A stretch of 64,000 bases of DNA from a virus. Below are positions 2,898 through 26,193 of the stretch, one piece after another. The stretch is taken from the IMG/VR virus record IMGVR_UViG_3300031857_000054, positions 32,001 to 96,000 of that record; one strand, written 5' to 3'. Position numbers and translations under genes: made by a program. Positions within the stretch are counted from its first letter, which is position 1; each line of letters starts with the position of its first letter. The notes under the pieces were generated by a model that searched no databases, was not told where the DNA came from, and saw only the letters and a program-made list of their open reading frames with translations.

Positions 2898-2900
2898 CTT

Positions 2901-3101: not shown

Positions 3102-3332
3102 TTAGACGGTTCTTCTTCTCTTTGTGTGTGCCATATCAATCCAGGTCAGCACTGCAATTGGCACCATCCATCCGAAGGCGAAGACCCACTCTACGACCTT
3201 GGTGAACTCTTCGCCCCAATCCGCGACCATTCCTGCTCTGAAATACACAGTCATGAAGCCACTTGCTACTACCCAAACCAAACCACTGATTGCCGCAATG
3301 GCAATCAATGTACTCTTTATTATTCTATTCAT
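3102..3332 (-). CDS. 76-aa two-helix membrane protein (start corrected to ATG at 3332)
   Basis: MNRIIKSTLIAIAAISGLVWVV...; two hydrophobic segments and a basic tail; motif B 18 nt upstream. Confidence 0.7.
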   Translation of the reverse strand: MNRIIKSTLIAIAAISGLVWVVASGFMTVYFRAGMVADWGEEFTKVVEWVFAFGWMVPIAVLTWIDMAHTKRRRTV

Positions 3333-3358
3333 AGAATAAGAAAGAAAAAACAATAGGA

Positions 3359-3541
3359 CTAATGTCCTATTGCTTTTGACTTACAATAATAGTAGGCATC
3401 CATAGCATCGGATGTTGTTTCATCCCATTCTACTCTTGTCTCTAGTTTAGGGTTCTTCTCGCAGAACTCATTGTAAGTCATTCCTTCTGTGTAGACCAAT
3501 GTCTCATCATTGTACGCTACTTGCGTGATTGTTATCTTCAT
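3359..3541 (-). CDS. Hypothetical protein, 60 aa
   Basis: ORF preceded by motif B at the canonical spacing. Confidence 0.65.
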   Translation of the reverse strand: MKITITQVAYNDETLVYTEGMTYNEFCEKNPKLETRVEWDETTSDAMDAYYYCKSKAIGH

Positions 3542-3549
3542 ACTATGGA

Positions 3550-3577
3550 ACAGAATAAACCTGCCCCGAAGGGCAGG
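3550..3577 (-). terminator. Intrinsic terminator (UUCG loop) fused to motif B
   Basis: Minus strand CCTGCCC-TTCG-GGGCAGG-TTTATTCTGT. Confidence 0.7.
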
Positions 3578-3587
3578 CTCTCTCTCT

Positions 3588-3902
3588 CTAGAACGGCAGC
3601 TCGTCGACCTCTTCTTCTCTTGCCTCGAATGGACTTGCTGCTTCTACTATCATTGGCTCGTCCTTCATCCACCCACCATCTATCCAAGTATAGTAGTAGG
3701 TAGTGTAATCCATACAGTACTCAGGCATGTGTTGGTTCTCGTCTGGATGATATACAGCATACTCTCTCCATGTCCCAACTCGCACGATGCCTCCGTGTCC
3801 TTCCACCTGAACTTCCATCCCACTGACATCAAGACCCATCTCGTTCCACGAAGTTGCCATCTCTTCCGCGACAGCAACTAACTTTTTAAATTTATCTATC
3901 AT
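3588..3902 (-). CDS. Acidic hypothetical protein with SSB-like C-terminal tip
   Basis: 104 aa ending EEEVDELPF; motif B 21 nt upstream. Confidence 0.7.
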   Translation of the reverse strand: MIDKFKKLVAVAEEMATSWNEMGLDVSGMEVQVEGHGGIVRVGTWREYAVYHPDENQHMPEYCMDYTTYYYTWIDGGWMKDEPMIVEAASPFEAREEEVDELPF

Positions 3903-4082
3903 AGCAGGATAGAACAGAATAAACTCCTCTGAAATGACGGGGGGTACCCCGACACTCTATCGGAAGATGGGGGGATCTAATCTAACATCCCCCACCCTCG
4001 TATAGACATCCTAAAATTGTGGGGGTTGAAAATTTTGGGGGTGATTTGGCTGTTGAGGTGCTTGGGACCGAAATAGGTAAGA

Positions 4083-4700
4083 TTAGTTACCAGGAACTAC
4101 ATCGTAGTAGTAGCTATCGGTATCTTCTGATACCCATCTGTCTGATTGGTTCTCTACACTTGGGTGTTCTGTGTCTACTTTTATAGCAGTAGGACTTACA
4201 GGGAAGGGTTTAGTTACCCAGTTAGAATCTTTCCAGAATATGCGGTTATTGGGCATGCATAGTAGGTATCCCTCATCTGCTACTAGTATATGCCCTGCCT
4301 TATAGTCGGAAGGCTCATCACTGTATGGGTTATTGTACCAGTCTACTGTGAACAGGTAATTGGCCCAAATCAAACTTTTGTCTTTAAGGATTACCTGGCA
4401 TCTATGCTCGCTTAGGAAATCATAATGAACTATGCTTACGTTTTCACTAAAGCAGTCCCACAGTTGTTTGAAGTGATAGGGAATGTCATTTTCAGTTTCT
4501 TTTAAGTAGAGTTCACTTATAGGTACTCTAGATCTAAGCATTCCGTAGTCTGTAATAACGTGAAAGGTAAGGATTTTACCTGCTACACTCTGTATGGCAA
4601 AGGCATATACGTTGTCGTATTCTAAATCTTCAGAGTTTTTAGTAAAGTAAGAACGTTTGACTAGAGCCTTAAAGTGTGGGATGTTGGAGTTTAGTTGCAT
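4083..4700 (-). CDS. Conserved phage protein of unknown function (likely start ATG 4700)
   Basis: Motifs QLWDCFS, YLFTVDW and PNNRIFW resemble a family seen in aquatic phages; TAACTTTG (-7-like) just upstream on the minus strand at 4707-4714. Confidence 0.7.
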   Translation of the reverse strand: MQLNSNIPHFKALVKRSYFTKNSEDLEYDNVYAFAIQSVAGKILTFHVITDYGMLRSRVPISELYLKETENDIPYHFKQLWDCFSENVSIVHYDFLSEHRCQVILKDKSLIWANYLFTVDWYNNPYSDEPSDYKAGHILVADEGYLLCMPNNRIFWKDSNWVTKPFPVSPTAIKVDTEHPSVENQSDRWVSEDTDSYYYDVVPGN

Positions 4701-4987
4701 TGTATACAAAGTTAGTAAATATTTATTTGGTGGATTTCTTTATAGGGTAGTTACGATGGAAGTAGAAGTGGTCTTATTTTATCGGTAAAATGCGGTTCCC
4801 TGCGGGGTTCCCTCTATCCTTAGGTGTGAATAACTTCTTCTTTCCTTTCTCTTGATTTTCTACTTACCTTTGGGGGACTACAGGGGGTTAGGGTGACATA
4901 CCAAGTAAACTGTAGTTAAATCCTTGGGTCCTACTAGTAGTTGAGTTTTCCTTATTAAGGGGTAGTGTGCCTTGTTGGTTTTACCTC

Positions 4988-5017
4988 TTGACTTTAATCT
5001 GTAAAGTGATATATTTG
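4988..5017 (+). promoter_or_regulatory. Bacteroidota sigma-A-type promoter
   Basis: TTG-N19-TATATTTG matches the -33/-7 consensus TTG...TAnnTTTG; 18 nt before ATG 5036. Confidence 0.75.
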
Positions 5018-5035: not shown

Positions 5036-5374
5036 ATGAGAGAAAGGCTTCACTTAATGGGTAATGGCTATGCTGGTGAGCTGGTTAGTCTTATAAAAAG
5101 TAAGAGAAGCGAGAATGTAATGATGAGTCCTTATGACTTTAATGTAATTAGAGCTAAGGTTCACTTACTGGATGGGGTTAGTTTGAGTGGAAAGGAATTG
5201 TACATTGAGTCGGTTGATGGGAACTATACAACGTATATTGGAATTAGTTCTACAATGCCGAATGGCAGTATGTACTTTAGCGATCCATACAGAACAGTAG
5301 CCTATCTGCTTTATGACGGCATAGACGAGAATGGATACTTAGTCACAGAAAATGACGAAAGGCTTTTGATATAA
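5036..5374 (+). CDS. Hypothetical protein, probably tail-fibre associated
   Basis: 112 aa; C-terminal YLVTENDERLLI; stop overlaps the start of the fibre gene. Confidence 0.6.
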   Translation: MRERLHLMGNGYAGELVSLIKSKRSENVMMSPYDFNVIRAKVHLLDGVSLSGKELYIESVDGNYTTYIGISSTMPNGSMYFSDPYRTVAYLLYDGIDENGYLVTENDERLLI

Positions 5375-6675
5375 TGGCAACCAAAGAAACAAGAGTATCC
5401 CAATTACCTCAAGCAGGGTCTTTAGCAAGTACTGATAAAGTAGTTGTGTTGAAGGCTGGTATTACGTCAATTGCTGATGTGGGTACAGTTACCTCTGCTG
5501 CTTTCTTGGGAAAGACTACTGATGCATTGCCTGAAGGAGGAAATCTTTACTTTACAAACAGTAGAGTTAAAGCTAAGGTCTTCCAAATGATTCAAGCTGG
5601 TACTGGTGTTTCTTTTGCAATCAACGATACAGCCGAGACCATTACAATCAGTGCACTAGGAGATGTAAGAAGCGTCAATACCAAAACAGGATTTGTAAGT
5701 TTGAATACAGACGATATCCCTGAGGGCACTACTAATAAATACATTACCAATCCAAGAATTGATGCTAGAGTAGCAGACTTGTTAAAAGCAGGTGCCAATG
5801 TTACTCTGAACTATAACCCAGGATTGGGGACATTGACCATTAATAGTACGGGTAATGTAAGAAGTGTAAACACGTTAACAGGAGATGTTATACTCACTAC
5901 TGATACTATAACTCAGGGAGTTAGTAATTTCTATTATACAGAAACAAAGTTTGATGCTTCGTTAGCTACCAAAACAACAACCAATTTAGCTGAAGGCACT
6001 AACCAATACTTTACTCCAGCTAGAGTTCGCACTACTGTCCTTACGGGATTTAGCAGTGGAGCCGATGCTCAGGTAGAAGGAACTGATACTGTATTACAGG
6101 GTTTTGGTAAACTACAGACTCAAGTTAGTTCTGCTAAAAACACAACAAACGCACACATAGCAAATACGTCTAATCCTCACAACGTTACTAAGGCACAGGT
6201 AGGATTGGATAACGTACCTAACGTAAATGCTACTGTTGCTTCAAACATAACAAGTGGATTACTTCCAGATGCGAGACTATCGGCAAACGTAACCCAACAA
6301 GGAAATACGTTTAATGGAGTAAACCAATTAGTTAGATTAGACGGATCAGGAAAGCTTCCTGCAATTGATGGTTCTCAGTTGACAGGATTGATTTCTCAAA
6401 TCGCTAATCTTTCTGACGTTCAACTTACTAGTTTACAGATAGGACAAAGCTTATCTTATAACGGAACAAAGTGGGTCAACTCTGCTGTGACGGCAACTGT
6501 ACGACACGATTATCAAGGAGTGTATTCTTACGTAGGAAGAGCACCTCAGTTAAGTTCTGAAGGAGCAAACGTTTGGAAAATAACAAGAATTCAAGTCCTA
6601 ACAGATGGTAACGTACTAATCACCCAAGCATTGAGTGTGTCTTGGAGTGGCAGATTAACACATACATATTCATAA
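5374..6675 (+). CDS. Tail or head fibre protein
   Basis: Four TTDxLxEGxNxYFT-like repeats, two VRSVNxxTGxVxL repeats and HIANTSNPHNVTKAQVGL, all typical of phage fibre shafts. Confidence 0.75.
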   Translation: MATKETRVSQLPQAGSLASTDKVVVLKAGITSIADVGTVTSAAFLGKTTDALPEGGNLYFTNSRVKAKVFQMIQAGTGVSFAINDTAETITISALGDVRSVNTKTGFVSLNTDDIPEGTTNKYITNPRIDARVADLLKAGANVTLNYNPGLGTLTINSTGNVRSVNTLTGDVILTTDTITQGVSNFYYTETKFDASLATKTTTNLAEGTNQYFTPARVRTTVLTGFSSGADAQVEGTDTVLQGFGKLQTQVSSAKNTTNAHIANTSNPHNVTKAQVGLDNVPNVNATVASNITSGLLPDARLSANVTQQGNTFNGVNQLVRLDGSGKLPAIDGSQLTGLISQIANLSDVQLTSLQIGQSLSYNGTKWVNSAVTATVRHDYQGVYSYVGRAPQLSSEGANVWKITRIQVLTDGNVLITQALSVSWSGRLTHTYS

Positions 6676-6694
6676 ATTATAAAATTAGAAACTT

Positions 6695-6991
6695 ATGGCA
6701 ATCATATCAACCAAACCAACCATTGTAGACGGGGTAGAGTATCCTCTACTTCTAGTTAACTTAGCCATATCTCCACTTGTTCAAGAAGGAGGAATCATCG
6801 GAGCATCAGTTGCTATGCGTTTGACTCCTTACAGAGACTTGGGAGGAAACATCGAACAACTTCCTGACTACGCTAAGGCTGTTTCTTACTTTGATGTTTT
6901 TAAAGAAGCTGAGTCTGACCCTGAAATCGCATCTGCGGTAGGAAAGATCATGACAGGTCTTCAAGAGTTTATTACTGATAAAGGACTTTAA
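6695..6991 (+). CDS. Small fibre-associated protein (possible chaperone)
   Basis: 98 aa between fibre genes, coupled to the next gene by TAATG. Confidence 0.55.
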   Translation: MAIISTKPTIVDGVEYPLLLVNLAISPLVQEGGIIGASVAMRLTPYRDLGGNIEQLPDYAKAVSYFDVFKEAESDPEIASAVGKIMTGLQEFITDKGL

Positions 6992-8781
6992 TGGCACAAA
7001 GGGCTGCAATAGCATCTGGTAACTGGAGTAATCCAGCTATTTGGAACGGGGGAGTACTTCCTGAACCTGGAGATGTTGTTGCTTCTAACGGCTTTACAGT
7101 TACTATTGACCAGAATATTAACGTAGATTCAATTACAAATGCGGCAACTACGGTAGGAACCGAAGTTCCTTTAATGACTTCTAATACCGCACCTAGTGGT
7201 ATTGCTTCTAATAATGGTACAGGAGGTTTTGCAAGTTTTTCTGCTTATTTGTCTTTTGATCGTAGTTTTGGTCTTTGTTATTATCCAGGACCAGTTACAG
7301 GGGATTGGATTGCATACGAATTTGCTACTGCTAAAAAAATAGGAAGATTCGGTGTATCTTTTAATGGAGGTTCAAATACTGTTAGTTATAGCTTAGAAGC
7401 ATGGAATGGTTCTACTTGGATTGTTATTGGAACTCATACAGCAAATGGTAGTTTTACCAGTCCATATTTTGTAAATACAACTGCATATCTTAAGTATAGA
7501 ATAGTACTTTCTGGCACTAATACAGGAGCTCAAATAACTGAGTTTTATTTGTACGATGCCTTGTCTGTAGCTGCAACAGCAGGAGGAGGATTTATTGTAG
7601 ACGCAACTAGAACTTTAACTTTTACAAGTAGTGTCTATAGTATTTCAGCAGGAACGGTAACTTGTTTAACTTACTCTGGAAATTCAAGTACTACATTAAC
7701 TATAAGTGCAGGAGTTGGGGGTATCAGTAGTGTATCTGCTACGAATCGGGGCTGTATTGAGGTTACGGGAGGTGGGAATGTAAATATTACTGCTAATTTA
7801 AATTACTTGCAGGTTTGGGCAACAAATAATTCAAGACTAAGACTTGTAAGTGCAGGCACTGTAAATATAACAGGAGCTTTATTAGCAGGAGGACAGGGAG
7901 GATATGCTGTACATGTAGTAGGTAATAATATAACACTTAATGTAGTAGGTAATTTGTTTGGAGGAGGAGATAATGATGCCTATGCTATTTCAGCTTCTGG
8001 TTTAAATAATACTATTACTGTTGTAGGGAATCTTTATCCTAGTGGAGCTAACAGAGCAGGAGGAATTAATATGGCTAGTACAGGAACTTTAAATGTTACA
8101 GGTAATGTTTATGGAGGATATAATCCTGGACAACCTGGTTACGGCATCCTACTAGCAGCTGTTTGTACTTGTAATATTACAGGAAATATTACCTTAGAAG
8201 GTACACAAAGCGCTCCTGCTTTTTATTCTAACGTAGCTTCTTATGTAAATCATATTGGAGCTATAAGTTCCAGCGTAACAACTTCTACATCACAAATTTT
8301 TATATCACTTAATGCCTCAGCTATTAATATTTTAACAGGGCCTTTTATTTCTTCTCCTACAGGAGGTCAACCTCTTTATGTATCTCGTATGCACTACAGG
8401 AGAACAATGGGTTCTTATTTTGAGTTTAGAAATAACAGTACAAATGGAGCTTTACCTCCAGCTGCTCCTGCTCCTGCTACTAGATTGGTAAGTCCAGATA
8501 CAGTAGCAGACTCTCCTATTCCTGCAAATGTACGACAAGGAACAGTTTATTCATTAGGTTCTCAAACAGGCACAATGATAGTACCTTCTCCGTCTAACGT
8601 AGCCAACAATGTACCTGTAGACAACACAGTAGGAACAGCAGTCCTTGACCCTAACGCTATATGGGCTGTCCCACTAACTTCCATCAATACCTTAAATAGT
8701 ATAGGAAGAAGAGTTAAAAACGCTGCTACAGTAGAAACTACTGGAGCACAAATTCAAACCACATTAAATAATAACGAGTAA
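6991..8781 (+). CDS. Tail spike / receptor-binding protein, paralog 1
   Basis: ASGNWSNPAIWNGG start, discoidin/CBM-like segment (WIAYEF...YLKYRI), GTLNVTGNVYGG beta-helix repeats. Confidence 0.65.
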   Translation: MAQRAAIASGNWSNPAIWNGGVLPEPGDVVASNGFTVTIDQNINVDSITNAATTVGTEVPLMTSNTAPSGIASNNGTGGFASFSAYLSFDRSFGLCYYPGPVTGDWIAYEFATAKKIGRFGVSFNGGSNTVSYSLEAWNGSTWIVIGTHTANGSFTSPYFVNTTAYLKYRIVLSGTNTGAQITEFYLYDALSVAATAGGGFIVDATRTLTFTSSVYSISAGTVTCLTYSGNSSTTLTISAGVGGISSVSATNRGCIEVTGGGNVNITANLNYLQVWATNNSRLRLVSAGTVNITGALLAGGQGGYAVHVVGNNITLNVVGNLFGGGDNDAYAISASGLNNTITVVGNLYPSGANRAGGINMASTGTLNVTGNVYGGYNPGQPGYGILLAAVCTCNITGNITLEGTQSAPAFYSNVASYVNHIGAISSSVTTSTSQIFISLNASAINILTGPFISSPTGGQPLYVSRMHYRRTMGSYFEFRNNSTNGALPPAAPAPATRLVSPDTVADSPIPANVRQGTVYSLGSQTGTMIVPSPSNVANNVPVDNTVGTAVLDPNAIWAVPLTSINTLNSIGRRVKNAATVETTGAQIQTTLNNNE

Positions 8782-10547
8782 TGGCACTAAGAGCAGCAAT
8801 AGCATCTGGTAACTGGTCAAACCCAGCAACGTGGAATGGAGGAGTTCTTCCTGGCCCAGGAGATATAGTAGCGTCAAATAACTTCACAGTTACAATAGAT
8901 CAAAATATTAATGTTGATACTTTAACAAACACAGCACAAAGTCTAATTACAGCTGTTCCTTTAATGACTTCTAATACAACACCAAGTGGTATTGTCACAG
9001 GGTTAGGAGGAACAAGTGCTTACATTGCTTTTAATGGGTCAGTCTCACAAAACAGTTTTACCAATGCGAATCCAGGTGACTTTTTTGGATATGAATTTAC
9101 TTCACCAAAAGCAATTGACATGTTTACTTTTGTTTTGGGAGGAAGTATCACAACTAATATCTCTTTCCAAAGTTGGGATGGTTCTGCTTGGATTACTTTA
9201 TATACTGCTGTACTTGCAGGTGTAAACACATTTACCAGTCCTCTTATAGGCAATAGTGTTGCTTACATAAAATACAGGTTTTTAATAAATACCACTGCTA
9301 CTTTACAAATGAGGGAAACTTATTTGTATGAGTATTTATCAACTACTGCAGCAGTAGCTGGCGGTGGATTTATTTTAAATAGTGGAATCACAGTAACTAC
9401 TACAGGGGAAACAGGACTATCTGCTGGGTCTACTGACTTAATTACTTTTTCAAGTAGTGGCACGGCAACAATAAATTGTGGTACTGGAAATATACTAAGA
9501 CCGACATCTGCTTCAGCTATTTCTACAATAAAGGTAACAGGAGGAGGTACGTTAAGTATTACAGGAAATTTAGAACCAGGTTCAACGAATGGTACTAGCA
9601 GGATCCTACATATTACAACAACAGCAGGAGCAGTTGTTAACGTGACAGGAAGAGTATATGGTGGAAATTCAAACGGTATTTTAACAGACGTAAGTTGTAC
9701 ATTAAATGTCATTGGCAATGTACTTGGAACTAATACTAACGGACCAGTAGCAAGTATTTGGTTTGGTGCAGGAGGCACATTGAATGTTACAGGAAATATT
9801 TATGGAAGCGAAGGATTTAACAACAATGGTTACGGAATTTATTTTAATATAGGCAATCTTAATATTACTGGAAACGTATATGGTGGTGAAAACCAAGGAG
9901 TGAATGATTGGGGAATACAAATAGTAGGGATTGCAACTGTCTATATTACAGGTAATCTTTTTTCAGGAAACTCTCCTAGCACAAATAATTTTCCAGCAAT
10001 AAACTGTACTACCGCCTCTTACATAAATCAAGTAGGAGCTATCTATGCAGGAAGAAACTCTGTCGGTTTTGTCTCTTCAAGTAGTACTGCTATAAACCTA
10101 TTAACAGGACCTTTTGTATGTAATGAGTATGGATTCTTTCCTTACCAAGTTGTAAGAATGCATTTAATACCTAGTACAAGTTCTTATTTTGAATTTAGAG
10201 ACGAGACAACCAATGGTGCAATACAACCTGGCGCTATTGCACCTGCTACTCGTTTAGTATCTCCTGCAACTTTAGTAGATAACTTAGCAGTTTCTGATGT
10301 GCGGTTTGGTACTACCTACGCTTTAGGTACATTGACTGGGACTTTGAGAATGCCTAGTGCAAACCAAGTAACCTTTGGAATTCCTGTAGATAATACTTTT
10401 GGAAACGCAGTATTGACCGCTGCTTCTGTTTGGGATTATCTAGTATCAAACATTACAGTAGAGAACAGTATAGGAATGAGACTAAAGAACGTAGCTACTC
10501 CTCAAAGTGTTGGAGAACAGCTAGAAGCTTTTCTAAGATTAGATTAA
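8781..10547 (+). CDS. Tail spike / receptor-binding protein, paralog 2
   Basis: Same architecture as 6991-8781 with near-identical N-terminus and conserved C-terminal part. Confidence 0.65.
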   Translation: MALRAAIASGNWSNPATWNGGVLPGPGDIVASNNFTVTIDQNINVDTLTNTAQSLITAVPLMTSNTTPSGIVTGLGGTSAYIAFNGSVSQNSFTNANPGDFFGYEFTSPKAIDMFTFVLGGSITTNISFQSWDGSAWITLYTAVLAGVNTFTSPLIGNSVAYIKYRFLINTTATLQMRETYLYEYLSTTAAVAGGGFILNSGITVTTTGETGLSAGSTDLITFSSSGTATINCGTGNILRPTSASAISTIKVTGGGTLSITGNLEPGSTNGTSRILHITTTAGAVVNVTGRVYGGNSNGILTDVSCTLNVIGNVLGTNTNGPVASIWFGAGGTLNVTGNIYGSEGFNNNGYGIYFNIGNLNITGNVYGGENQGVNDWGIQIVGIATVYITGNLFSGNSPSTNNFPAINCTTASYINQVGAIYAGRNSVGFVSSSSTAINLLTGPFVCNEYGFFPYQVVRMHLIPSTSSYFEFRDETTNGAIQPGAIAPATRLVSPATLVDNLAVSDVRFGTTYALGTLTGTLRMPSANQVTFGIPVDNTFGNAVLTAASVWDYLVSNITVENSIGMRLKNVATPQSVGEQLEAFLRLD

Positions 10548-10622: not shown

Positions 10623-10877
10623 ATGAAATTTGTAAACTTTATTGGAGGACTTTTCAAAGACGAAAAGGGTAACGTCTCCATGAAACGTTTGTGCGGCTTA
10701 TTTTGCACATTGACTTTGTGCGCTACTTTGTACGCCAATTCTTTTACCGAAGCACACTTTGCTCCTTCTACTCCTTTGGTAGATGCTGTAGCTTTGTTGG
10801 CTTTTGGTTGTTTGGGTTTGACTTCTGTTGAGAAGATCATGAAAAAACCTGAATCTAACTCTACTTCAGCTGAATAA
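10623..10877 (+). CDS. Putative holin
   Basis: 84 aa, two hydrophobic helices, charged C-terminus, directly upstream of the putative endolysin. Confidence 0.5.
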   Translation: MKFVNFIGGLFKDEKGNVSMKRLCGLFCTLTLCATLYANSFTEAHFAPSTPLVDAVALLAFGCLGLTSVEKIMKKPESNSTSAE

Positions 10878-10885: not shown

Positions 10886-11524
10886 ATGAACTATACAAGA
10901 GAACAAATTGAAGCCGCAGTAAAAGCCAAGGGCTATGCTTACTTTGATGGCACAAAAGACTACGATGTAAATATCATCGGAGTACGTAACTCTTCTACTG
11001 GTAACGATGTTACTAACTTGTTTGATGACACTATGACTGTTGCTTACAAAGTAGGAGGCAAATGGGTATTTCACCAATGGATGGCTACCACAGATCCAGG
11101 TACTAAAGGTGTTAGAGAATTTCACAATGCTGGTGGAGTAGCAAGACTAGTTCCAGGTCAGTACAGAGGTTCACACGGTATTGGTCTACACCAAGGTAAG
11201 TACGAAGCTTTGAAGCAAGCTAAACCAGTGAAGGTTTATCGTGATGCTAACAAAGACATGACTTACGATGAGAATACCATCACTGAGGGTATCTACGGTA
11301 TCAACATCCACAAAGCTGGTGCAGATTCTACTTTTGTAGAAAACTGGAGCGAAGGATGCCAAGTGTTTAAGCGTGAGAAAGATTTTAACCAATTTATGGA
11401 AATCTGTAAACAAGCTCGTGGCATTCATGGTAACTCTTTCACTTACACCTTGATTGAGTCTGGTGACTTTATTGTTGCTGACAAAGTAAAAGGCGAAGCT
11501 AAAAGAGCTGCTAAGAAAAAATAA
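10886..11524 (+). CDS. Putative endolysin (L,D-transpeptidase/YkuD-like cysteine peptidase)
   Basis: GINIH-x(10)-WSEGCQV catalytic-type His/Cys motif; no signal peptide; next to holin-like gene. Confidence 0.6.
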   Translation: MNYTREQIEAAVKAKGYAYFDGTKDYDVNIIGVRNSSTGNDVTNLFDDTMTVAYKVGGKWVFHQWMATTDPGTKGVREFHNAGGVARLVPGQYRGSHGIGLHQGKYEALKQAKPVKVYRDANKDMTYDENTITEGIYGINIHKAGADSTFVENWSEGCQVFKREKDFNQFMEICKQARGIHGNSFTYTLIESGDFIVADKVKGEAKRAAKKK

Positions 11525-11979
11525 TGAAAAGACTACTCGTTAGTCTTTTAATATTCTTGACTATCTCCTGCAAAGCACAAACTATTGCTAAGGCAGGAGA
11601 TGGTTGGGATTTAAAGATTGACTCAGCCATACAACTTATAAAGACCATTGACCCTGAAAAGTACAAAGTCTTTACAGATGTATGTCAAAGAGTTGATTTT
11701 TGGAAAAGTTCTTTTTCTTCCACAGGTGTAGTCGAAGGAGACTATACCATACTAGTAGCAGACGCAGACATTAAGTTAAAGTCTATCAATAACTTAGCGG
11801 CTGTGTTAGTTCACGAAAGTATGCATTTAGTATTTGTTTTACAAGATGCAGTCATGAGTGAAAAGGAAGAAGAGTATAAGTGCTATTTGTATGAATTATC
11901 CTTTATTAAAAACATCCCAACCCCCGAGCCTTGGTTACTGGCAAACCTTTATGAAAAATTGCAAAAATATAAACCATGA
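11524..11979 (+). CDS. Secreted zincin-like (HExxH) protein
   Basis: Signal peptide ending KA|Q; LVHESMH followed by EEEYKCY as a possible third ligand. Confidence 0.65.
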   Translation: MKRLLVSLLIFLTISCKAQTIAKAGDGWDLKIDSAIQLIKTIDPEKYKVFTDVCQRVDFWKSSFSSTGVVEGDYTILVADADIKLKSINNLAAVLVHESMHLVFVLQDAVMSEKEEEYKCYLYELSFIKNIPTPEPWLLANLYEKLQKYKP

Positions 11980-13865
11980 AAAAAATACTTTTGTTTGCGT
12001 TGGGATTGTTTATCCTCACTACTAACTTATTTGCACAAAGTGCAAACACTTCTCCTGGAACTGGGCATTGGGTTGTTATCGACTCAGGTTATCAAGTAGC
12101 TACAACTACTGTAGGTAAAACTGTTGCTCCGTTACATTTCTACAACACTTCTACTAGTGAAAAAATTACAGGTATGCAGTTTCGTGTATTTTACGATAAC
12201 ACTGCATTTACTGGTGTTGTACCTTCTTTGAAGATTTCTACTTCAGATCAGTATCTTCAGTATGTAGATAGTAATTTACAAGGATTTTTAACTGTAACTC
12301 TAGCTTACACAGGTTCTAGTTCTACTTTTAACTATTCTGACGGTGCTACATTTGATTTAACTTTTACTCACGCTGCCGAAGCTATATTTAACAACTTAGA
12401 TTCTATCAAGACTTTGAAAGTTGCAGGTGTGAAATCATTTGCAAATAGAGCTGCTACTAACTGGGGTAACGATACCACTTTGGTTGTCTACTCTTATGGT
12501 GGTCGTTTCAACCAAAAGGTTCTTCGCTTTGCTGCTAAGTTTAAAAACGTTACGGGTTCTGATGCTAAGAATCTTTGGGTATCTTTAGAAAAGAAAGCTC
12601 CTACAGGTTCTTGGACACATGTAGAGTCAAAATCAACTAACTCATTGGGCCACGTAGTATTTAAGAAATTTATTGATACTACCTACTGGGATGTAAGAAT
12701 GGTTGTTAAAGGCGATACAATGACTCCTGGTAACGTATTCTCTACTGCTGATGCACAAAAGATTAACCAAGCAATCCTTGCACAATATACTCCAACAGGA
12801 TTTGACTACTACACTATGGATGTAAACGGAACTAGCGGAGACATTTCTATTGCTGACGTTTACTCTGTATACGGACGTTTGGCAGGAAGATTCTCTTCTT
12901 GGCCCAACTCTAAAAAAGACGTAATGTTCTTTACAGTAGCTGAGTATAATGCTATCAACGGTGCTACTGCTAATCCAACCTCTACTTACGCAACTGTTAA
13001 CAACTTCAACTATTCTATTGACGGTAAAGACTCTATTACTTACTACGTAGCAGTTAAAGGAGACGCAAACTCTACAGGATTTAAAATGGCTCGTTTGACT
13101 CCTATTAAAATTGTTAACCAAGCAAATGCTAAGAACTACATCATTGACAAAACAGTAAGCTATGATGATCCTTCTTTGGAGACAGTAGAAATCAATATGC
13201 CCAAAGTAAAAGTAGAGGATGGCAATTTGGTGAGCGTACCAGTTAAAGTTTTAACTAACGGTAAAGACCTTACTGCTCTTCAGTTAGACCTTAAATATGA
13301 TACTGCTTACTTGTCTTTCAAACAGATTGAAGTAACAGAAAAAATCATGAAGTGGACTGCCTACACAAACCCTTCTAATGGAGTTGTGTCTTGGGGAGGA
13401 GCTGACCTTACAAATGACAATCTGTTAAAAGACGGAGAACAAGTATTTACTCTTCAGTTCATTGCTAAGAAACCACAGGATTCTTGGGCTACAGCAGCCA
13501 TCTGGACAGCAGAAAAGTACGTAGGTGATAACAAGGCTAAGGATATGAACATTAGACCTACTATGGGCATTGTTGAGGTTCGTAGAAAAGGATTGGTATC
13601 TATCAACCAAGTAAGTGACCTAATAGCATTTCCAAATCCTTCAGAAGGTGCTATCCAAGTACAATTCAAGATAGCCGAAGAGTCTGATGTAAACTTGTCT
13701 TTGTACAATGAGGTAGGTCAGTTAGTCCAAAATATTCTAGACAAGCACATGCCTGTAGGAAACTATAAGTATAGTGTAGATTTAGAAAGATTACCTGACG
13801 GAGTTTATATCTTAACTCTTAAAACAGAAAAACAATTCCTAGATTCTAAACTATTAATCATATGA
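11976..13865 (+). CDS. Cohesin/dockerin-like surface protein with type IX secretion C-terminal domain
   Basis: Signal peptide FA|Q; two cohesin-like domains (ITGMQFRVFYD; VSVPVKV...LTALQLDLKYD); dockerin-like loop DVNGTSGDISIAD; CTD AFPNP...LYNEVGQLV...LPDGVYILTL...KLLII. Confidence 0.75.
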   Translation: MKKILLFALGLFILTTNLFAQSANTSPGTGHWVVIDSGYQVATTTVGKTVAPLHFYNTSTSEKITGMQFRVFYDNTAFTGVVPSLKISTSDQYLQYVDSNLQGFLTVTLAYTGSSSTFNYSDGATFDLTFTHAAEAIFNNLDSIKTLKVAGVKSFANRAATNWGNDTTLVVYSYGGRFNQKVLRFAAKFKNVTGSDAKNLWVSLEKKAPTGSWTHVESKSTNSLGHVVFKKFIDTTYWDVRMVVKGDTMTPGNVFSTADAQKINQAILAQYTPTGFDYYTMDVNGTSGDISIADVYSVYGRLAGRFSSWPNSKKDVMFFTVAEYNAINGATANPTSTYATVNNFNYSIDGKDSITYYVAVKGDANSTGFKMARLTPIKIVNQANAKNYIIDKTVSYDDPSLETVEINMPKVKVEDGNLVSVPVKVLTNGKDLTALQLDLKYDTAYLSFKQIEVTEKIMKWTAYTNPSNGVVSWGGADLTNDNLLKDGEQVFTLQFIAKKPQDSWATAAIWTAEKYVGDNKAKDMNIRPTMGIVEVRRKGLVSINQVSDLIAFPNPSEGAIQVQFKIAEESDVNLSLYNEVGQLVQNILDKHMPVGNYKYSVDLERLPDGVYILTLKTEKQFLDSKLLII

Positions 13866-14212
13866 AACTAAAAGAAAAATTAGGTTTTGGCCAAGCAGAA
13901 CCCGTAGCAGTAGCAGACAACAATCGTTTCTACTACATGTTGCAACAAATGCAAGCCAATCGTTGGAAAATTACAGCTATTGTATTGGGGTTGTTTACCT
14001 TAATCATAGTTGGTATTAATGCTGCTGTCTTTGTAGGAGCTTCTATTGGAGAAGACTGGAAAGAAATGTTACTTATCCTCTTAGGAGCTTTTGTAGGTAA
14101 CTTGAACAAAGTAGTTGACTACTGGTTCAACTCTGAAGATAGAGACAAAATGTTAATACAGAAGGTGGATGAGGAGGATGGTGTATCTTTGTCAAACACA
14201 ACTAATCCATAA
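13862..14212 (+). CDS. Two-helix membrane protein
   Basis: Two hydrophobic segments; LLGAFVGNLNKVVDYWF. Confidence 0.65.
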   Translation: MKLKEKLGFGQAEPVAVADNNRFYYMLQQMQANRWKITAIVLGLFTLIIVGINAAVFVGASIGEDWKEMLLILLGAFVGNLNKVVDYWFNSEDRDKMLIQKVDEEDGVSLSNTTNP

Positions 14213-14216
14213 TATT

Positions 14217-14540
14217 ATGTCAGAAGAACAAGAAGAAGGCGGAATGTCTGGTGTAAAGAAGGCAATCATCGGAGCAATTACCACAGCGGTAACTGCAGGT
14301 GGTGCTTGGTTTGCTACTCACTTAGGTGGTGGCGAAGATGAAAAACCAGAAACTCCAGCAGCTGTAGCTGCTCCCGCACCTGTGATTAACATCACTACGA
14401 ACAACGAACAGAAGCAACAGGCAAACACTGGTGGCGGTAATACCGTCATCATTAAGGAAAAGGTAGCACCTGCTGCATCTACTCCTGCCCCTGCTGCTCC
14501 TGCATCTAAACCCCAAGCAGATGAAGAAGATCCTTGGTAG
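14217..14540 (+). CDS. Single-pass membrane protein with Pro/Ala-rich extended tail (start ATG 14217)
   Basis: KKAIIGAITTAVTAGGAWFAT helix, then P/A-rich segments, ending EEDPW. Confidence 0.65.
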   Translation: MSEEQEEGGMSGVKKAIIGAITTAVTAGGAWFATHLGGGEDEKPETPAAVAAPAPVINITTNNEQKQQANTGGGNTVIIKEKVAPAASTPAPAAPASKPQADEEDPW

Positions 14541-15210
14541 CCTACTGTTAATAATCCTTATCTATGGTTGTGGTTCTATGAAGACCACAACCGAGGATGA
14601 GGTTATTGAGAAAAAAGATATTTCTAGCGTGTCTGGATATACTGATTCTATTAAGAAGAACGTACAAGTAATTAGCATGGACATGACTAAAGTGTTGGCT
14701 ATGTACCCAAGTCTTCAAGAGAAAAATGTAGGTTTAGGTTTTGCAGAATCCGTATTAGATTATTTAGATGAAACAAATCGTTTTGTATTTACTGAAGAGA
14801 AGGGTGAAATCAAGGAAAGGATGGTAACTCAATTCAAAGCTTCTAAAAAAGGAGTCTTTGAAGAACCTATTGACGGCAAAGGAAAAATTAAAGCTGCCCA
14901 CTACTTTGTTTATGTAACCGTTGCTGATTTTGCAGTAGACGAGGACGAGACTGTACAAGGTGGAAAAGCTAAAGTAGTGGTAACTACTTTTATCCGTTTG
15001 CAAGTTCGATTTGTAGACGCTAAAACAGGACAAATTTACATTGGTTCTGGTGAAGGCGAATCTATAAAAGTAGGAGAGTCGTTCTTAAAATCTCTAGACG
15101 ATATGAAGTTTTCTCAAAGTACCGTAGGTAAGGCAACACGAAAGTCGCTTGAAACAGCAACTACCAAAGTGATTGAAAACCTTATTAGAAACGGTGTCTT
15201 TAAGAGCTAA
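14521..15210 (+). CDS. CsgG/HfaB-like lipoprotein
   Basis: Lipobox IYGC; NRFVFTEE, then LQVRFVDAKTGQIY and a terminal helix GKATRKSLETA, the layout of the CsgG-like family. Confidence 0.7.
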   Translation: MKKILGSLLLIILIYGCGSMKTTTEDEVIEKKDISSVSGYTDSIKKNVQVISMDMTKVLAMYPSLQEKNVGLGFAESVLDYLDETNRFVFTEEKGEIKERMVTQFKASKKGVFEEPIDGKGKIKAAHYFVYVTVADFAVDEDETVQGGKAKVVVTTFIRLQVRFVDAKTGQIYIGSGEGESIKVGESFLKSLDDMKFSQSTVGKATRKSLETATTKVIENLIRNGVFKS

Positions 15211-16636
15211 CATATTAATCTTACTATTGAGTATAGGACTGAGTTTAAAAGCTCAGTCCTTTACTTACTCGTACAAAGATCCGTGTACAAAAGAATTAAA
15301 GTTCATTCTTGCTGATATGAACTCTCCGATAGTAATAAGTTACTACGGACAAGTAAAAAACTTCAGTTACACAGAATTGCAGGACGGTACATTTGACGCT
15401 TGGTTAAATTATACTTATGCCAATTACAAAACAACAACCCCATGTCAAGGAGTTTTTGCAACAACTACTACAACTACAAGCACAGCAACTATAACTTCTT
15501 TAGTAAATAATGTGATGAATCTTAACTCTTTAACGAGTTTAGATTTATCTTCGACTTCGCTAGGATCAAGTACTTCAGTAGGAAGTACAACATCTTCTGG
15601 CACAAATGTAAAAAATGACTCTAAAAATGGAAGCTCGAATAACAAAGTTGGTAGTAATGGAAACAATAGTACTACTGATAATTCTGGGAATAATTCTAGT
15701 AACAGTGACCAGTCATCTGGACAAGGGTCCAATACGTCGTCGGAAGGACAAGTAGGCAATGGAAGCAACTCAGGTAATAATTCTAATGGCTCTAATGATG
15801 CTGGGGGTAACTCTGGGAGTGGCTCTAGTTCTTCTTCTAGTGGTGGTGGTAATGGTTCTGGTGGAGGTGGTGGTTCAGGCACCGCAGGTGATAAGAAACC
15901 TGAAGAAAAAACTCCTGAAAAGATAGAAGAACAAAAGAGTGAAACTCAACAAGCAGGTGGAAGTTCGTCTGCAAAAGCCGCTGCTAAAGGGAAAGTAGAA
16001 ACTCAAAAACCAGCTATTCTAGTTACAGGAGATATAGTTGGAGTCCAAACAGTGCAAGATAAAGCACAAGACGCTAGGGCAACAATGTCCTTTACTAGAG
16101 TTAAAGGAGACGGTACTGCCTCTGTTGGACTTGCAGCTGACTATATGGTCAATGCTAAAATAGGAAACTTTAACGGCGTGCGTTCTTGGATGGGCGTTAA
16201 CAAGAAAGGCAACAAACATATCAATGTTCTTTCGGCAGGAATTAACCTCATGCCAAAGTCTTACAACGGTTCTTTGTTGTTTGTAAGGGTAAACTCGCTG
16301 AAGAACTTTACAGCGCTCTACGGAGCCGCCGCATCGTATGGCGAGTTATTTCAAGAAGAAGTTATATCTACCCTACTGATAGGCGGTTTTATGTATAAGG
16401 GACAACTTACTAAACACATAGATGCTACTATTATTGCCGCTAGTGTTTACGCTCCTTATACAAAGTATTACACAGAATCTTTATTTGAATCTCAACCAAT
16501 TATAGTTCCTTTTCTAAACATCAACTACTCACTTACAAAAACTTTTAAGTTCGGACTTACAGGAGGAGGCACGTACATCGCCAATCAGGATGTCGTCAAT
16601 TATCAAATCTTAATGGGAGGTAAGTTAAAGATATGA
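15194..16636 (+). CDS. Secreted protein with S/G/N-rich linker and putative C-terminal outer-membrane beta-barrel (start GTG 15194 or TTG 15173)
   Basis: Signal peptide KA|Q; long low-complexity linker; last ~200 aa are amphipathic strands ending YQILMGGKLKI. Confidence 0.6.
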   Translation: MSLRANILILLLSIGLSLKAQSFTYSYKDPCTKELKFILADMNSPIVISYYGQVKNFSYTELQDGTFDAWLNYTYANYKTTTPCQGVFATTTTTTSTATITSLVNNVMNLNSLTSLDLSSTSLGSSTSVGSTTSSGTNVKNDSKNGSSNNKVGSNGNNSTTDNSGNNSSNSDQSSGQGSNTSSEGQVGNGSNSGNNSNGSNDAGGNSGSGSSSSSSGGGNGSGGGGGSGTAGDKKPEEKTPEKIEEQKSETQQAGGSSSAKAAAKGKVETQKPAILVTGDIVGVQTVQDKAQDARATMSFTRVKGDGTASVGLAADYMVNAKIGNFNGVRSWMGVNKKGNKHINVLSAGINLMPKSYNGSLLFVRVNSLKNFTALYGAAASYGELFQEEVISTLLIGGFMYKGQLTKHIDATIIAASVYAPYTKYYTESLFESQPIIVPFLNINYSLTKTFKFGLTGGGTYIANQDVVNYQILMGGKLKI

Positions 16637-17835
16637 GATGGCTAGTCATTCTACTCTTGTTTGCAAGTCCTCTGAAGGCTCAATTTACTTATTCTGGATA
16701 CTTGTACAATGCAAACGGTTCGGGCGCCTCTAACGTTCCCGTAAAAATATACAAGAGTACAGCAGGTGCTACTACTAAGTCAGGTACTTTTGCTAAGATA
16801 ACTTCAGGTATTCCTTCAGATAGAGGACGAGGAACTTCAGTACTTCACTCAACTGCTAACACAGATGAAAAGTCTGTGGCTATTACATTTCCTTCTGGCT
16901 TTAGTCCTTCTTACGCAGGAACTAGCTATTCTTCAGGCCACGTTAACGCTAACTCTTGGTTTACTTTTGGAACAAGTTCTAGTACTGGATACAACGGAAA
17001 TGCTACTAGTCCTAATCAACCTACTATCCATATTGGGTCGGTGGATAATGGCTCAACAGATAACAACGTTTCTTATGTATCAACTGAAAGTTACACTGAT
17101 GGAACTTACGGTGATGTGTTTAGAGTAAGATACGAGGGTAACTGTAAGTACAACCAAACGGGAATCAATTATGTTTGGGATTTATACTTTATTAAAAACC
17201 AAGCCTCAAAGCAGATAGTGGTTTGGAGAACATTCACCGCAGACGGTTCCAACCAAGAAATAATGGGTATATCTACAGGTAGTGCTTGGATGGCAAGTAC
17301 TCTCGTTACTACTGGTTCTTTTTCTGGCACTAGTTGGGAGATAAACACAACCTCAACCACTACAACAAGTTCTAATGTACTTGACGCTACTGCATATACT
17401 AACTCATCGGGATACTACTCTTTCTCAAGAACTACAGTAGCAGGTAATCAATTCACTATTCAAGTCGATGCTCCAACTAGGATTCAAGCCTACACAAACT
17501 CAGACATCCAAGCAATATCAGACCTCATCCTCAATAAAGTGGTTAAGACTGGGTTGACTTTTCAGATGTTTGACGTAAACGATGACTCTAAAATAACTGT
17601 AGCAGATAAATACTACGTAGCGGCAAGAAAGGCTGGAAGATTTTCTAAGTGGAGAATAGCACCTGATGTCCGTATCTTTACAACAGCACAATATGATGCT
17701 ATCAAAGCTGCCACAACAAATGTAAGAGGAACTTATCCTGGAGTCAGTACTTATACTACTTCTACTCTTACTTCTGGAGGAAGTTTAAGTCTTTACCTAA
17801 TAGCACCTGGTTATGCAGGACAAGTAACATACTAA
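16633..17835 (+). CDS. Secreted dockerin-like protein with an inserted ~200-aa domain; partial paralog of 11976-13865
   Basis: Signal peptide KA|Q; DVNDDSKITVAD Ca-loop; AGRFSKW...DVRIFTTAQYDAI aligns with AGRFSSW...DVMFFTVAEYNAI. Confidence 0.65.
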   Translation: MRWLVILLLFASPLKAQFTYSGYLYNANGSGASNVPVKIYKSTAGATTKSGTFAKITSGIPSDRGRGTSVLHSTANTDEKSVAITFPSGFSPSYAGTSYSSGHVNANSWFTFGTSSSTGYNGNATSPNQPTIHIGSVDNGSTDNNVSYVSTESYTDGTYGDVFRVRYEGNCKYNQTGINYVWDLYFIKNQASKQIVVWRTFTADGSNQEIMGISTGSAWMASTLVTTGSFSGTSWEINTTSTTTTSSNVLDATAYTNSSGYYSFSRTTVAGNQFTIQVDAPTRIQAYTNSDIQAISDLILNKVVKTGLTFQMFDVNDDSKITVADKYYVAARKAGRFSKWRIAPDVRIFTTAQYDAIKAATTNVRGTYPGVSTYTTSTLTSGGSLSLYLIAPGYAGQVTY

Positions 17836-17836
17836 C

Positions 17837-18277
17837 ATGAAAAAACTAATCATACTCTTAATCCTAGCATTTGCAGGTTCGTTGAATGCACAATGCTACA
17901 AAATTGACACCGTTAGAAACCACACACAACTAAGAACTATTGCAGGTAGGCCTGTAGACTTTGGTATAGTGGCAACGGCTGAACAACTTATCTCTGCCAA
18001 GTATTCGCTGTGCGATACAGGCATTGGAGTTGACCTTGCAATTAACACAATTGCTATGCCTCAAAGACTAATTAACATTGCAGGGTTGCAGTTTTTAAAG
18101 AGGGACTATGTAGTCAATATGTCCATCACAGCTAATAACATTACACATTATTCTAGGAACGTAAAGACCGTTTATGTCAATGCTATGTTCCTAACTGTAG
18201 AGGACATTCCTCACAACAAAAAAGCATACTCTAGGGCAGTAGAGAAGTGCTTAATAGATTTAGTTAAGGAGTTGTAG
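17837..18277 (+). CDS. Small secreted alpha/beta protein
   Basis: Signal peptide NA|Q; terminal helix YSRAVEKCLIDLVKEL; last gene of the operon. Confidence 0.65.
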   Translation: MKKLIILLILAFAGSLNAQCYKIDTVRNHTQLRTIAGRPVDFGIVATAEQLISAKYSLCDTGIGVDLAINTIAMPQRLINIAGLQFLKRDYVVNMSITANNITHYSRNVKTVYVNAMFLTVEDIPHNKKAYSRAVEKCLIDLVKEL

Positions 18278-24981: not shown

Positions 24982-26193
24982 ATGAATAACAACCCAAACG
25001 ACGACCAATTAGGTTTAGACAACCTAGAGTTCTTTGAAAATTTTGCTACTGATGATCCCCTAGAGGATCCCCAGTTTGATCCCAACGCTAATCTTGCCCC
25101 TGATATTTTGGGTGGCGAGAAGATGGACTTAGAAGACGATGACCTTCCTATGGGAGGACAAGGTAAAAAACCAACGGCTCCTGCAACTCCTGCCACTCCT
25201 CCAGCCTCTACTCCTAATGAAGAAGAAGAGGAAGAAGAAGACGATGACAACAAGTCTGCAGGCAACCAAGAGCTAGAAGATGATGACTTAGAAGATGATT
25301 CTGACGACATTAACTACTACGAAGCTTTTGGTAAAGGATTGCTGAAGTCAGGACATTTTGATTTAGGTGAGGAAATTGATCCTGACCAAGTAGAATGGAC
25401 TGAAGAAAGTTTCCTTGAAATGATGTCTGCTACCGTTGAGAACAAAGCGTGGAAACAACTAGAGGAAATTGCTACTGAGGCTTATGGTCCAGAAGGACTT
25501 GAATTGGTGAAAGACCTTTTCATTAATAAAGTCCCTGTACAACAATACCTTTCTAAGTTCAACGAACAAGTTGCACTTGAAAATGTTGACTTGACTAATC
25601 CTCAGAACCAAGAAGCTATCTTCCGTGAGTATCTTTCTCGCACTGGTTTAGACCAAGATGAGATTGATGAACAACTTGAATATGCTGTCAAGACTAATAA
25701 ACTTGAGAACTTCTCAGAAAAGTACTACGTAAAATTACTTGAACGTAGTAGACAAGAGAGAGAAGTGTTAGCAGAACAAAGTGCTCAGAAACAAAGAGAA
25801 GCACAAGAAAGAGAAAATGCAAGACAAGAATCTTACATTAAAACTTTGGAAGGTGCAATCAAGACAGGAGATATTAACGGCTTCCCTATCAATCAGAATG
25901 AAGCAGCTAACTTATTTGACTATGTAACTAACAAAAGTTATCAGTTACCTAACGGTCAAAAGATTAGCGAGTTTGAGTTTACCTTGGCAAAGATGCGTCA
26001 AGAAGATCCTCAAAAGTTTCTAGCAGTAGCAAGGTTAGTTCAATCTAACTTAGACCTAGCTCCAGTTAAGAAGAAAGGTGTAAGTGAGGAGACTAACTCA
26101 ATTTTCCAAGAACTGCAAAAAAAGTCTAAAAAAGGACCTAAAGGAGAACCTAGAAAAGAGACCCAACTCTTTAGTAATTTCTTCGGTAGATAA
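24982..26193 (+). CDS. Acidic putative capsid scaffolding protein
   Basis: D/E-rich N-terminus and helical C-terminus, between portal and MCP as in crAss-like genomes. Confidence 0.65.
   Translation: MNNNPNDDQLGLDNLEFFENFATDDPLEDPQFDPNANLAPDILGGEKMDLEDDDLPMGGQGKKPTAPATPATPPASTPNEEEEEEEDDDNKSAGNQELEDDDLEDDSDDINYYEAFGKGLLKSGHFDLGEEIDPDQVEWTEESFLEMMSATVENKAWKQLEEIATEAYGPEGLELVKDLFINKVPVQQYLSKFNEQVALENVDLTNPQNQEAIFREYLSRTGLDQDEIDEQLEYAVKTNKLENFSEKYYVKLLERSRQEREVLAEQSAQKQREAQERENARQESYIKTLEGAIKTGDINGFPINQNEAANLFDYVTNKSYQLPNGQKISEFEFTLAKMRQEDPQKFLAVARLVQSNLDLAPVKKKGVSEETNSIFQELQKKSKKGPKGEPRKETQLFSNFFGR

Follow-up and report, generated by a model that had tools for sequence, protein, structure and literature searches.

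An eight-gene late cassette of Flavobacterium-type phages that may display a lectin through host type IX secretion and cohesin-dockerin docking

Cohesin-dockerin assemblies, whether of the cellulosome type or non-cellulosomal, combine a cohesin scaffold with calcium-loop dockerin partners that bear carbohydrate-binding modules. In the 'Cryophage' genomes, phages of Bacteroidota, flexible islands were described that encode cargo of type IX secretion systems (T9SS) with type A sorting domains, including a PA14 protein; the cargo varied among variants and was called a unique occurrence (Bellas et al. 2020, PMC7468147). Pelagimyophages (PMC7029224) and the methylophage Melnitz (Buchholz et al. 2022, PMC9004378) carry csgG and csgF without curlin genes, for which 'sibling capture' or lysis control was proposed. 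A 'Host-interface island' in freshwater Flavobacterium jumbophages, a syntenic multi-gene set of secreted and lipoprotein candidates, was read as host-surface remodelling (bioRxiv 10.64898/2026.04.22.720137). Here, we analysed a cassette of eight genes (g1-g8) at positions 11524-18277 of a 64,000-nucleotide stretch of viral DNA (the window), corresponding to bases 32001-96000 of the 107,017-base IMG/VR virus record IMGVR_UViG_3300031857_000054, which is estimated to be 92% complete. We read it as a mobile, dispensable late cassette that may display a lectin via the host T9SS and cohesin-dockerin docking, and give this reading a probability of about 0.42.

The cassette resembles cohesin-dockerin assemblies in its predicted scaffold and calcium-loop partners, but it is phage-encoded, contains no enzymes, has a T9SS anchor rather than an S-layer or sortase anchor, and retains one intact calcium loop. 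It shares type A sorting and a variable PA14 element with the Cryophage cargo, whereas the latter consists of single enzyme or PA14 genes, and its description mentions neither a cohesin-dockerin pair nor CsgG-fold proteins, a barrel or partners in the membrane. As in the phage csgG/csgF clusters, a phage-borne outer-membrane lipoprotein related to the CsgG family occurs without curlin genes. In those clusters, however, CsgG models as a full channel and pairs with CsgF, while the cassette protein g5 is a remote relative without evident membrane hairpins, is paired with a separate barrel and a small second copy of the fold, and belongs to phages with predicted Bacteroidota hosts. The Host-interface island, compared by its description only, differs in having acyl-carrier proteins and a phosphohydrolase, and its text contains no cohesin, lectin or CsgG. 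Literature searches returned no paper describing the cassette as a system. The first-pass annotation, made from the letters of the window, had known of no described system with this composition in crAss-like phages; that is almost correct, but phage T9SS cargo (PMC7468147) and phage CsgG/CsgF (PMC9004378) are partial precedents.

The eight genes lie head-to-tail on the + strand, at the positions given by the first-pass annotation (a slash marks the signal peptide cleavage site):

g1, 11524..11979, + strand: small secreted zincin-like protein, 151 aa, with KA/Q, HESxHL and an EE motif; accessory member
g2, 11976..13865, + strand: T9SS cargo scaffold, 629 aa, with a cohesin-like module, a beta-sandwich with a dockerin-like loop, a cohesin and a type A sorting domain
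g3, 13862..14212, + strand: two-helix membrane protein, 116 aa, with a hydrophobic 19-mer; accessory member
g4, 14217..14540, + strand: protein anchored in the inner membrane, 107 aa, whose periplasmic stretch is rich in Pro/Ala and Gln/Asn
g5, 14521..15210, + strand: CsgG/LpoB-fold lipoprotein, 229 aa, with a lipobox; the most conserved cassette member
g6, 15173..16636, + strand: secreted protein, 487 aa, with a Cys-pair N-domain, a Ser/Gly/Asn-rich linker, a Lys-rich segment and a C-terminal barrel
g7, 16633..17835, + strand: secreted protein, 400 aa, that combines a beta-sandwich with a dockerin-like part; an exchangeable head is inserted at about residues 44-243
g8, 17837..18277, + strand: small secreted protein, 146 aa, with NA/Q; a second, shorter CsgG/LpoB-fold protein

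Packing is tight throughout. The stop of the preceding endolysin-like gene and the start of g1 have base 11524 in common; the overlap is 4 nt at each of g1/g2, g2/g3 and g6/g7 and 20 nt at g4/g5, and g7 and g8 are spaced by 1 nt. The g5/g6 overlap is 38 nt if the TTG start of g6, which is uncertain, is used. Export signals were called by hydrophobicity combined with a motif check, and every product carries an export or membrane signal, in agreement with the earlier description of eight packed, envelope-targeted genes. Five N-terminal signal peptides end in A/Q (g1 KA/Q, g2 FA/Q, g6 KA/Q, g7 KA/Q and g8 NA/Q), g5 has the lipobox IYGC, and two proteins have membrane helices, just as had been noticed before. 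The helix of g3 is strongly hydrophobic (mean KD of 2.65 over a 19-mer); that of g4 is the weaker one, a Gly/Ala/Thr-rich segment that is less hydrophobic and falls under the cut-off, yet is conserved. A Gln right after the cleavage site is a known habit of signal-peptidase substrates in Bacteroidota, and the post-cleavage Gln of g1 (Q19) is invariant across its family. A pattern scan of the whole 107-kb genome found just two signal peptides ending in A or G before Q beyond the cassette; the corresponding lipobox pattern missed g5 itself and thus cannot show g5 to be the sole lipoprotein. Two small exported proteins outside the cassette are encoded at window positions 1325-1612 (- strand) and genome positions 25620-26081 (- strand), one of which (95 aa) has a possible lipobox.

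Single-sequence scans of Pfam, NCBIfam and PHROG gave nothing significant for g3-g8, PADLOC gave no match, and profile searches of the PDB gave no meaningful match for g1, g8, whole g6, the head of the window's g7 or g5 with a shallow alignment.

The cassette recurs widely. A protein search with g5 recovered 122 viral contigs at 81-100% identity (lineage 1), and tblastn on 80 fetched loci placed g1-g8 in identical order in nearly all of them. A relative of g5 with 44% identity led to 176 further viral contigs (lineage 2), in which the order is g2-g4-g5-g3-g6-g8-g7; in a sub-group of this lineage g2 is split, and g1 and g3 are absent. The cultured Flavobacterium phage immuto, a relative of the window's phage that infects Flavobacterium sp. 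LMO8, carries the cassette as gp013-gp019; the annotations of its products name a C-type lectin protein and a cohesin protein, and the others are listed as hypothetical. Contigs with the cassette range from tens of kb to 308 kb, and the core of g7, g2, g4, g5, g6 and g8 travels together across the two lineages and three kinds of genome backbone. As judged from viral contigs, the cassette is common in aquatic phages. Its recurrence in hundreds of independent contigs, like the scarcity of A/Q- or G/Q-type signal peptides outside it, speaks against a chance grouping.

This recurrence bears on the possibility that the block is a misassembled or captured host fragment. Its domains are typical of Bacteroidota surface proteins, and breaks at its edges had been named earlier as a way in which the assembly could prove faulty. 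However, the GC level of the cassette equals that of its flanks, and identical junctions occur in at least 26 independent contigs. The DNA of the block had no match among 50,697 GenBank phage records, and a scan of one genome per species (185,579 species) gave a single match, a 16.5-kb contig of a metagenome-assembled genome binned as 'Sphingomonadaceae bacterium' (RFPL01000028.1). Since this contig holds holin, endolysin and g1-g7, it is phage DNA, most likely mis-binned. Recurrence in phage contigs, together with this one phage-like match, shows the block to be a phage module rather than a host fragment or an assembly error. Neither are the products likely to be virion parts, because they are envelope-targeted and every soluble member has a signal peptide; the first-pass annotation had reached the same view. 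We consider an origin as host fragment or as virion proteins extremely improbable.

The presence of the cassette varies among close relatives. A search with the large terminase subunit (TerL) gave 49 related contigs, 45 of which span the region; the cassette is present in 30 of the 45 and absent from 15. On the TerL tree, the two states are interleaved, and well-supported branches force at least five changes. A contig with the cassette (L195) and one without it (L196) are sisters with support of 100/99, and another contig without it (L192), labelled 'unknown' by the script because of its short flank, is nested in a cassette-bearing clade. From these comparisons of gene content, which are new here, the cassette is mobile, dispensable, and repeatedly gained and lost.

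Lectin display as a reading starts from g2 and g7. In g2, Pfam Cohesin (PF00963) matches residues 405-526 with 42.9 bits (cut-off 24.1), Por_Secre_tail (PF18962) matches residues 552-628 with 44.2 bits (cut-off 27), and TIGR04183 reaches 35 bits (cut-off 23); an N-terminal cohesin module stays below threshold (20.4 bits, E 6.5e-4). The two sorting-domain matches, together with the Sec signal FA/Q, bear out the proposal that g2 is T9SS cargo and predict its secretion by that route. In two lineage 2 loci (L122 and L131) and in immuto, g2 is divided into two proteins with a signal peptide each, the C-terminal half consisting of Cohesin and Por_Secre_tail; the split orthologue in L131 matches Cohesin with 34.6 bits.

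Both g2 and g7 contain a beta-sandwich followed by a helix, a calcium-type loop of the form D-x-N-x-D-G-x-x-x-x-x-D and a second helix. In g2 this loop reads DVNGTSGDISIAD (residue 282) and is kept in both lineages, and in g7 it reads DVNDDSKITVAD and is likewise conserved; this region of g7 is paralogous to residues 221-343 of g2. Searched against the PDB, the g7 profile matches a dockerin module best (5k39_B, E 0.0064), and cellulosomal dockerins rank lower in the list. One calcium loop is intact in the dockerin-like region, the first repeat retaining its helix only, and one g7 orthologue reaches 17 bits to Dockerin_1, under the cut-off of 22.9. Of the cohesin-dockerin pair put forward in the first-pass annotation, the cohesin therefore stands above its cut-off, while the dockerin is a conserved loop motif with a weak profile match under the Pfam cut-off, and binding between the two is a prediction.

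The middle of g7 is exchangeable. Orthologues share the 43 N-terminal and the ~157 C-terminal residues and carry alternative segments between them: a C-type lectin (in a 327-aa form that includes the window's nearest relative), Lectin_C with Laminin_G_3 (ConA-like), PA14, GEVED, or the 200-aa head of the window, to which profile searches assigned no family. The last type is 89-98% conserved in >100 protein clusters, on contigs of 100-188 kb. A new finding is that g7 carries swappable heads, which are predicted to bind sugars. The split form of g2 suggests a possible hierarchy of anchor, adaptor and lectin.

In the favoured scheme, eight proteins would be sent into the host envelope, and the output would be a sugar-binding protein on, or shed from, the infected cell. 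The scaffold g2 would use Sec to pass the inner membrane and the host T9SS to pass the outer one, after which it would be retained on the surface or released. Its cohesins would bind the dockerin of g7 as well as g2's own dockerin; that g2 occurs naturally in two pieces, one with the dockerin and the other with cohesin and C-terminal sorting domain, argues that the two parts re-associate. The lectin g7, in which the Pfam scan found no T9SS domain, might leave the cell by way of the T9SS, a system that transports folded proteins, while docked to g2, or else through an outer-membrane complex of g5, g8 and g6 tied to the inner membrane by g4. In this scheme g1 would trim a partner and g3 would be an accessory membrane protein. 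The likely benefit would be that infected cells and their debris become sticky for a conserved glycan, keeping progeny near host cells or polysaccharide particles.

Lectin display would account for g2 and g7, for the exchange of heads, for g2 being naturally split and for the cassette being dispensable. Several points weigh against it. By itself it does not cover the role of the best-conserved core (g4, g5, g6 and g8). Binding between cohesin and dockerin is an assumption, and Pfam Dockerin_1 (PF00404) has no match in g2 or g7 at E up to 1. The host of the 107-kb phage, a Flavobacterium-type Bacteroidota, is a presumed one. Finally, translational coupling to the endolysin and the usual lysis-gene neighbours leave little time for surface assembly and point to lysis. 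Should lectin display prove correct, a plug-in sugar-binding protein would re-dress the hosts of many Flavobacterium phages that are abundant in fresh and brackish water, and host type IX secretion with a cohesin-dockerin joint would be a new viral route for altering adhesion and particle attachment in aquatic carbon cycling.

The head of g7 was also compared with the tail fibres, which are encoded upstream of the lysis genes:

5374-10547, + strand: three tail-fibre-like proteins

Outside two segments, the DNA of the window and of its nearest relative (L002) is 96-98% identical, and the differences are confined to the tail-fibre genes and the g7 head. The fibre segment covers the distal genes (window 7204-10074) and looks like a classic host-range swap. 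The comparison gave rise to the idea that the g7 head tracks tail-fibre specificity, which was ruled out by a comparison of 23 loci (Spearman 0.005, Mantel p 0.46). In these loci, the heads fall into three types that are each conserved, alongside fibres that are almost wholly unrelated, and identical PA14 heads are found with unrelated fibres. Because head type is independent of fibre type, a conserved glycan is a likelier ligand than a strain-specific receptor.

The same result weakens the suggestion, made in the first-pass annotation, that the complex masks receptors. Phage lipoproteins that block receptors are an established precedent (T5 Llp and Cor), and a displayed lectin complex or lipoprotein could likewise cover the phage's own receptor on infected cells and debris, causing superinfection exclusion. 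Surface targeting of the products and the confinement of differences from the nearest relative to fibres and head agree with this. Nevertheless, head type and fibre similarity are uncorrelated over the 23 loci, and the cassette shares an operon with lysis genes, which suggests late expression. We regard superinfection exclusion by receptor masking as improbable, and masking of strain-specific receptors in particular as less likely than stickiness for a conserved glycan.

The second part of the cassette centres on g5 and g8. The g5 protein is 82-93% identical over the 80 loci. Its family profile, built with distant relatives, matches E. coli CsgG in the PDB (E 0.0016), 19 of 43 relatives match Pfam CsgG and seven of 43 match LpoB, and a protein-language search of the Atlas gave 0.95 to CsgG/LpoB clusters; g5 itself has no Pfam match at E up to 1, including CsgG (PF03783). 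In a comparison of families by hhalign, g8 aligned with g5 over 120 columns (probability 94.7%, E 6e-8), and g8 had no Pfam or PDB sequence match. The g5 lipobox is invariant in lineage 1, and a plain signal peptide takes its place in part of lineage 2.

CsgG channels are defined by two membrane hairpins per subunit that build a 36-stranded pore. Where g5 aligns to the first hairpin, its stretch is shorter and contains DEDE, and 48 residues follow the aligned region, compared with 85 in CsgG, which would leave no room for a second hairpin. Among the eight proteins, Pfam and NCBIfam detected no csgE, csgF or curlin family. Thus, of the CsgG-like lipoprotein proposed earlier, the remote homology and the lipobox stand, but the oligomeric channel is not supported; as far as the alignment indicates, g5 is probably not a CsgG-type channel.

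A beta-barrel had been claimed as well, and the last 228 residues of g6 are indeed modelled by AlphaFold2 (AF2) as a 12-stranded outer-membrane barrel (pLDDT 81.6). Foldseek with this model returned mostly outer-membrane barrels and a few mitochondrial or plastid ones, VIA-align returned outer-membrane, mitochondrial and other barrels (best Z 14.1 for PgaA and 14.0 for PelB), and the Atlas pointed to KdgM/Tsx-type barrels. These matches are generic (Z 11-14 to many families) and none stands out; the barrels of NalP, EspP and BrkA are among them. Compared with type Va autotransporters, the segment before the barrel has a pLDDT <50, and the 'passenger' would consist of a 70-aa domain and a disordered linker (~180 aa, Ser/Gly/Asn-rich).

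One could imagine a private export route across the outer membrane, with g5/g8 and the g6 barrel forming a type VIII-like or FapF-like channel for g7 or another unfolded substrate. In addition to the remote CsgG homology, the architecture of g6, in which a long linker and a conserved Lys-rich segment precede the barrel, is reminiscent of FapF and autotransporters; FapF, intimin and autotransporter barrels were among the Foldseek matches, and the missing T9SS domain of g7 would be accounted for. The hairpins that are not evident in g5, the lack of CsgE/F/A/B-like genes, the generic barrel matches and the unreliable AF2 model of g5 (pLDDT 46 from a shallow alignment) speak against such a route, which we deem quite improbable.

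The remaining members are smaller. Across 31 homologues from both lineages, g1 has invariant Q19, HESxHL (97-102) and EE (116-117). Given the invariant HExxH with a downstream EE, g1 may be a small secreted zincin on the strength of its motif; the motif region gave weak Pfam matches only, to Tox-MPTase2 and SprT-like. It is missing from immuto-type loci and is relocated or inverted in lineage 2. The g3 protein, also missing from immuto-type loci, had weak family matches only (Pfam, PHROG and NCBIfam). Its identity to the window is 73-91% across both lineages, and between the lineages it is 77-92% identical, versus ~45% for g5 and ~27% for g6; candidate explanations for this high conservation are separate exchange of g3 or its binding to a host target that is itself conserved. 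In an alignment of 22 homologues, g4 has a conserved MSEE start, the Gly/Ala/Thr-rich helix, a low-complexity stretch and an E-E-D/S-P-W ending with an invariant Trp; inspection of this alignment by eye revealed no coiled-coil pattern in the periplasmic part. It directly precedes g5 in all loci but one (L160), where a 105-aa ORF lies between.

Two genes of the window upstream of the cassette resemble lysis genes:

10623..10877, + strand: holin-like small membrane protein, 84 aa, with a hydrophobic segment at residues 51-69
10886..11524, + strand: endolysin-like protein, 212 aa, matching phrog_3000 (E 5.5e-37) and phrog_33083 'endolysin' (E 4.4e-12)

The former had no family match in the Pfam or PHROG scans, and the latter had nothing in Pfam. 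Similar neighbours recur in changing arrangements. Homologues of the holin-like protein flank the cassette on its upstream or downstream side in many loci; the endolysin lies downstream of the cassette in L026 and L088, the holin lies downstream in L052 and L061, and in L160 the endolysin is immediately upstream of g2. In contigs of ~166 kb, which have DnaB and ribonucleotide reductase genes upstream of the cassette, a phrog_181 endolysin and a phrog_199 holin follow within ~1 kb 3' of g8, with one small ORF between in L038. The first-pass annotation understated this link to lysis genes.

The cassette, or its core of g4, g5, g6 and g8, could be a lysis accessory that breaches or loosens the outer membrane or times lysis, as a Bacteroidota counterpart of spanins. 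Here, g4 would serve as the arm in the inner membrane, g5/g8/g6 would form that in the outer membrane, and g1 would cut envelope tethers. The overlap of the g1 start with the endolysin stop is in favour, as are holin and endolysin genes adjoining the cassette in both lineages, even with the other endolysin family (phrog_181), and no recognised spanin was found among the window genes scanned. Lysis timing has also been put forward in print for phage CsgG (PMC9004378). In immuto, on the other hand, the cassette sits amid helicase, reductase and nuclease genes, with the endolysin ~6 kb off behind small genes and transfer RNAs (tRNAs). Nor is it evident what a cohesin protein sorted by the T9SS, or lectin heads that can be swapped, would do in lysis.

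The order of g4 and g5, an inner-membrane gene directly followed by that of an outer-membrane lipoprotein, deserves separate comparison with two-component spanins (Rz/Rz1), in which an inner-membrane gene overlaps the next gene, for an outer-membrane lipoprotein, beside holin and endolysin. The overlap and the position beside the endolysin are alike. Known spanins, however, have a coiled coil and a small Pro-rich lipoprotein, whereas g4 has no coiled coil and g5 is a large globular protein (229 aa) whose lipid anchor is not conserved, part of lineage 2 having a plain signal peptide there; furthermore, the cassette is dispensable and has six further members.

The relatives that lack the cassette offer another line of evidence. 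Behind the endolysin, 11 of these 15 have a small membrane-protein pair, consisting in 10 of a membrane plus coiled-coil protein and a partner. Seven relatives have the first type (L177:6261-7004), in which a 93-aa membrane plus coiled-coil protein is paired with a signal-anchored coiled-coil protein of 146 aa; L198:6574-7420 holds a diverged version of this type. In the second type, found in L196 (6757-7432) and two others, a 101-aa membrane plus coiled-coil protein is joined by a 121-aa thioredoxin-like protein. By tblastn, the pairs were detected in none of the fetched cassette-bearing loci, nor in the window, so that pair and cassette occupy the same spot but never occur together, which favours a role in lysis. 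The best family hint for the pairs, an Rz-like spanin PHROG, has an E of 0.035 and so lacks significance; it counts against that role, and we did not call them spanins for this reason. Their candidate role is a hitherto unrecognised function in lysis, or one resembling that of spanins.

A lysis accessory would cover the position of the cassette, the g4-g5 pair and the mutually exclusive alternative pair, and would leave the T9SS cargo, the lectins, the lost lipobox and the position in immuto unexplained; it is unlikely in our estimate, although it is the main rival. A narrower version, in which g4, g5, g8 and g6, perhaps with the putative zincin g1, form a new non-spanin device that opens the outer membrane at lysis and is interchangeable with the coiled-coil pair, the T9SS and lectin part being an add-on, we hold to be distinctly unlikely. 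If lysis is the function, the cassette would fill a gap in explaining how Bacteroidota phages cross the outer membrane without recognisable spanins. Lectin display and the lysis function are both testable now: immuto and Flavobacterium sp. LMO8 form a phage-host pair with the cassette, and natural relatives without it exist.

Downstream (3') of the cassette lie three small genes, followed by those for the large terminase, portal, major capsid protein and very large virion proteins; terminase, portal and capsid have PHROG matches, and two phage proteins exceed 2000 aa. No tRNA and no Rfam family was found. A scan for sigma-70 promoters and terminators gave 19 promoter-like sites versus 23.9 expected, with Bacteroidota promoters falling outside the coverage of the model. 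Positions 1-5000 of the window hold short ORFs only, mainly on the - strand and without tRNA or Rfam matches, and are probably a divergent early-gene region.

Two kinds of insertion were seen within the cassette. In L076 (10753-11352), a homing-endonuclease-like gene (phrog_314, E 1.1e-7) lies between g5 and g6. An insert of ~1.6-2.2 kb between g3 and g4 encodes a membrane plus coiled-coil protein of 86 aa along with two DUF2589 proteins; it occurs in L016 (7500-9700) and also in L013, L014, L017, L018, L045, L047 and L057, and it is found without the cassette in L192 (1564-2913).

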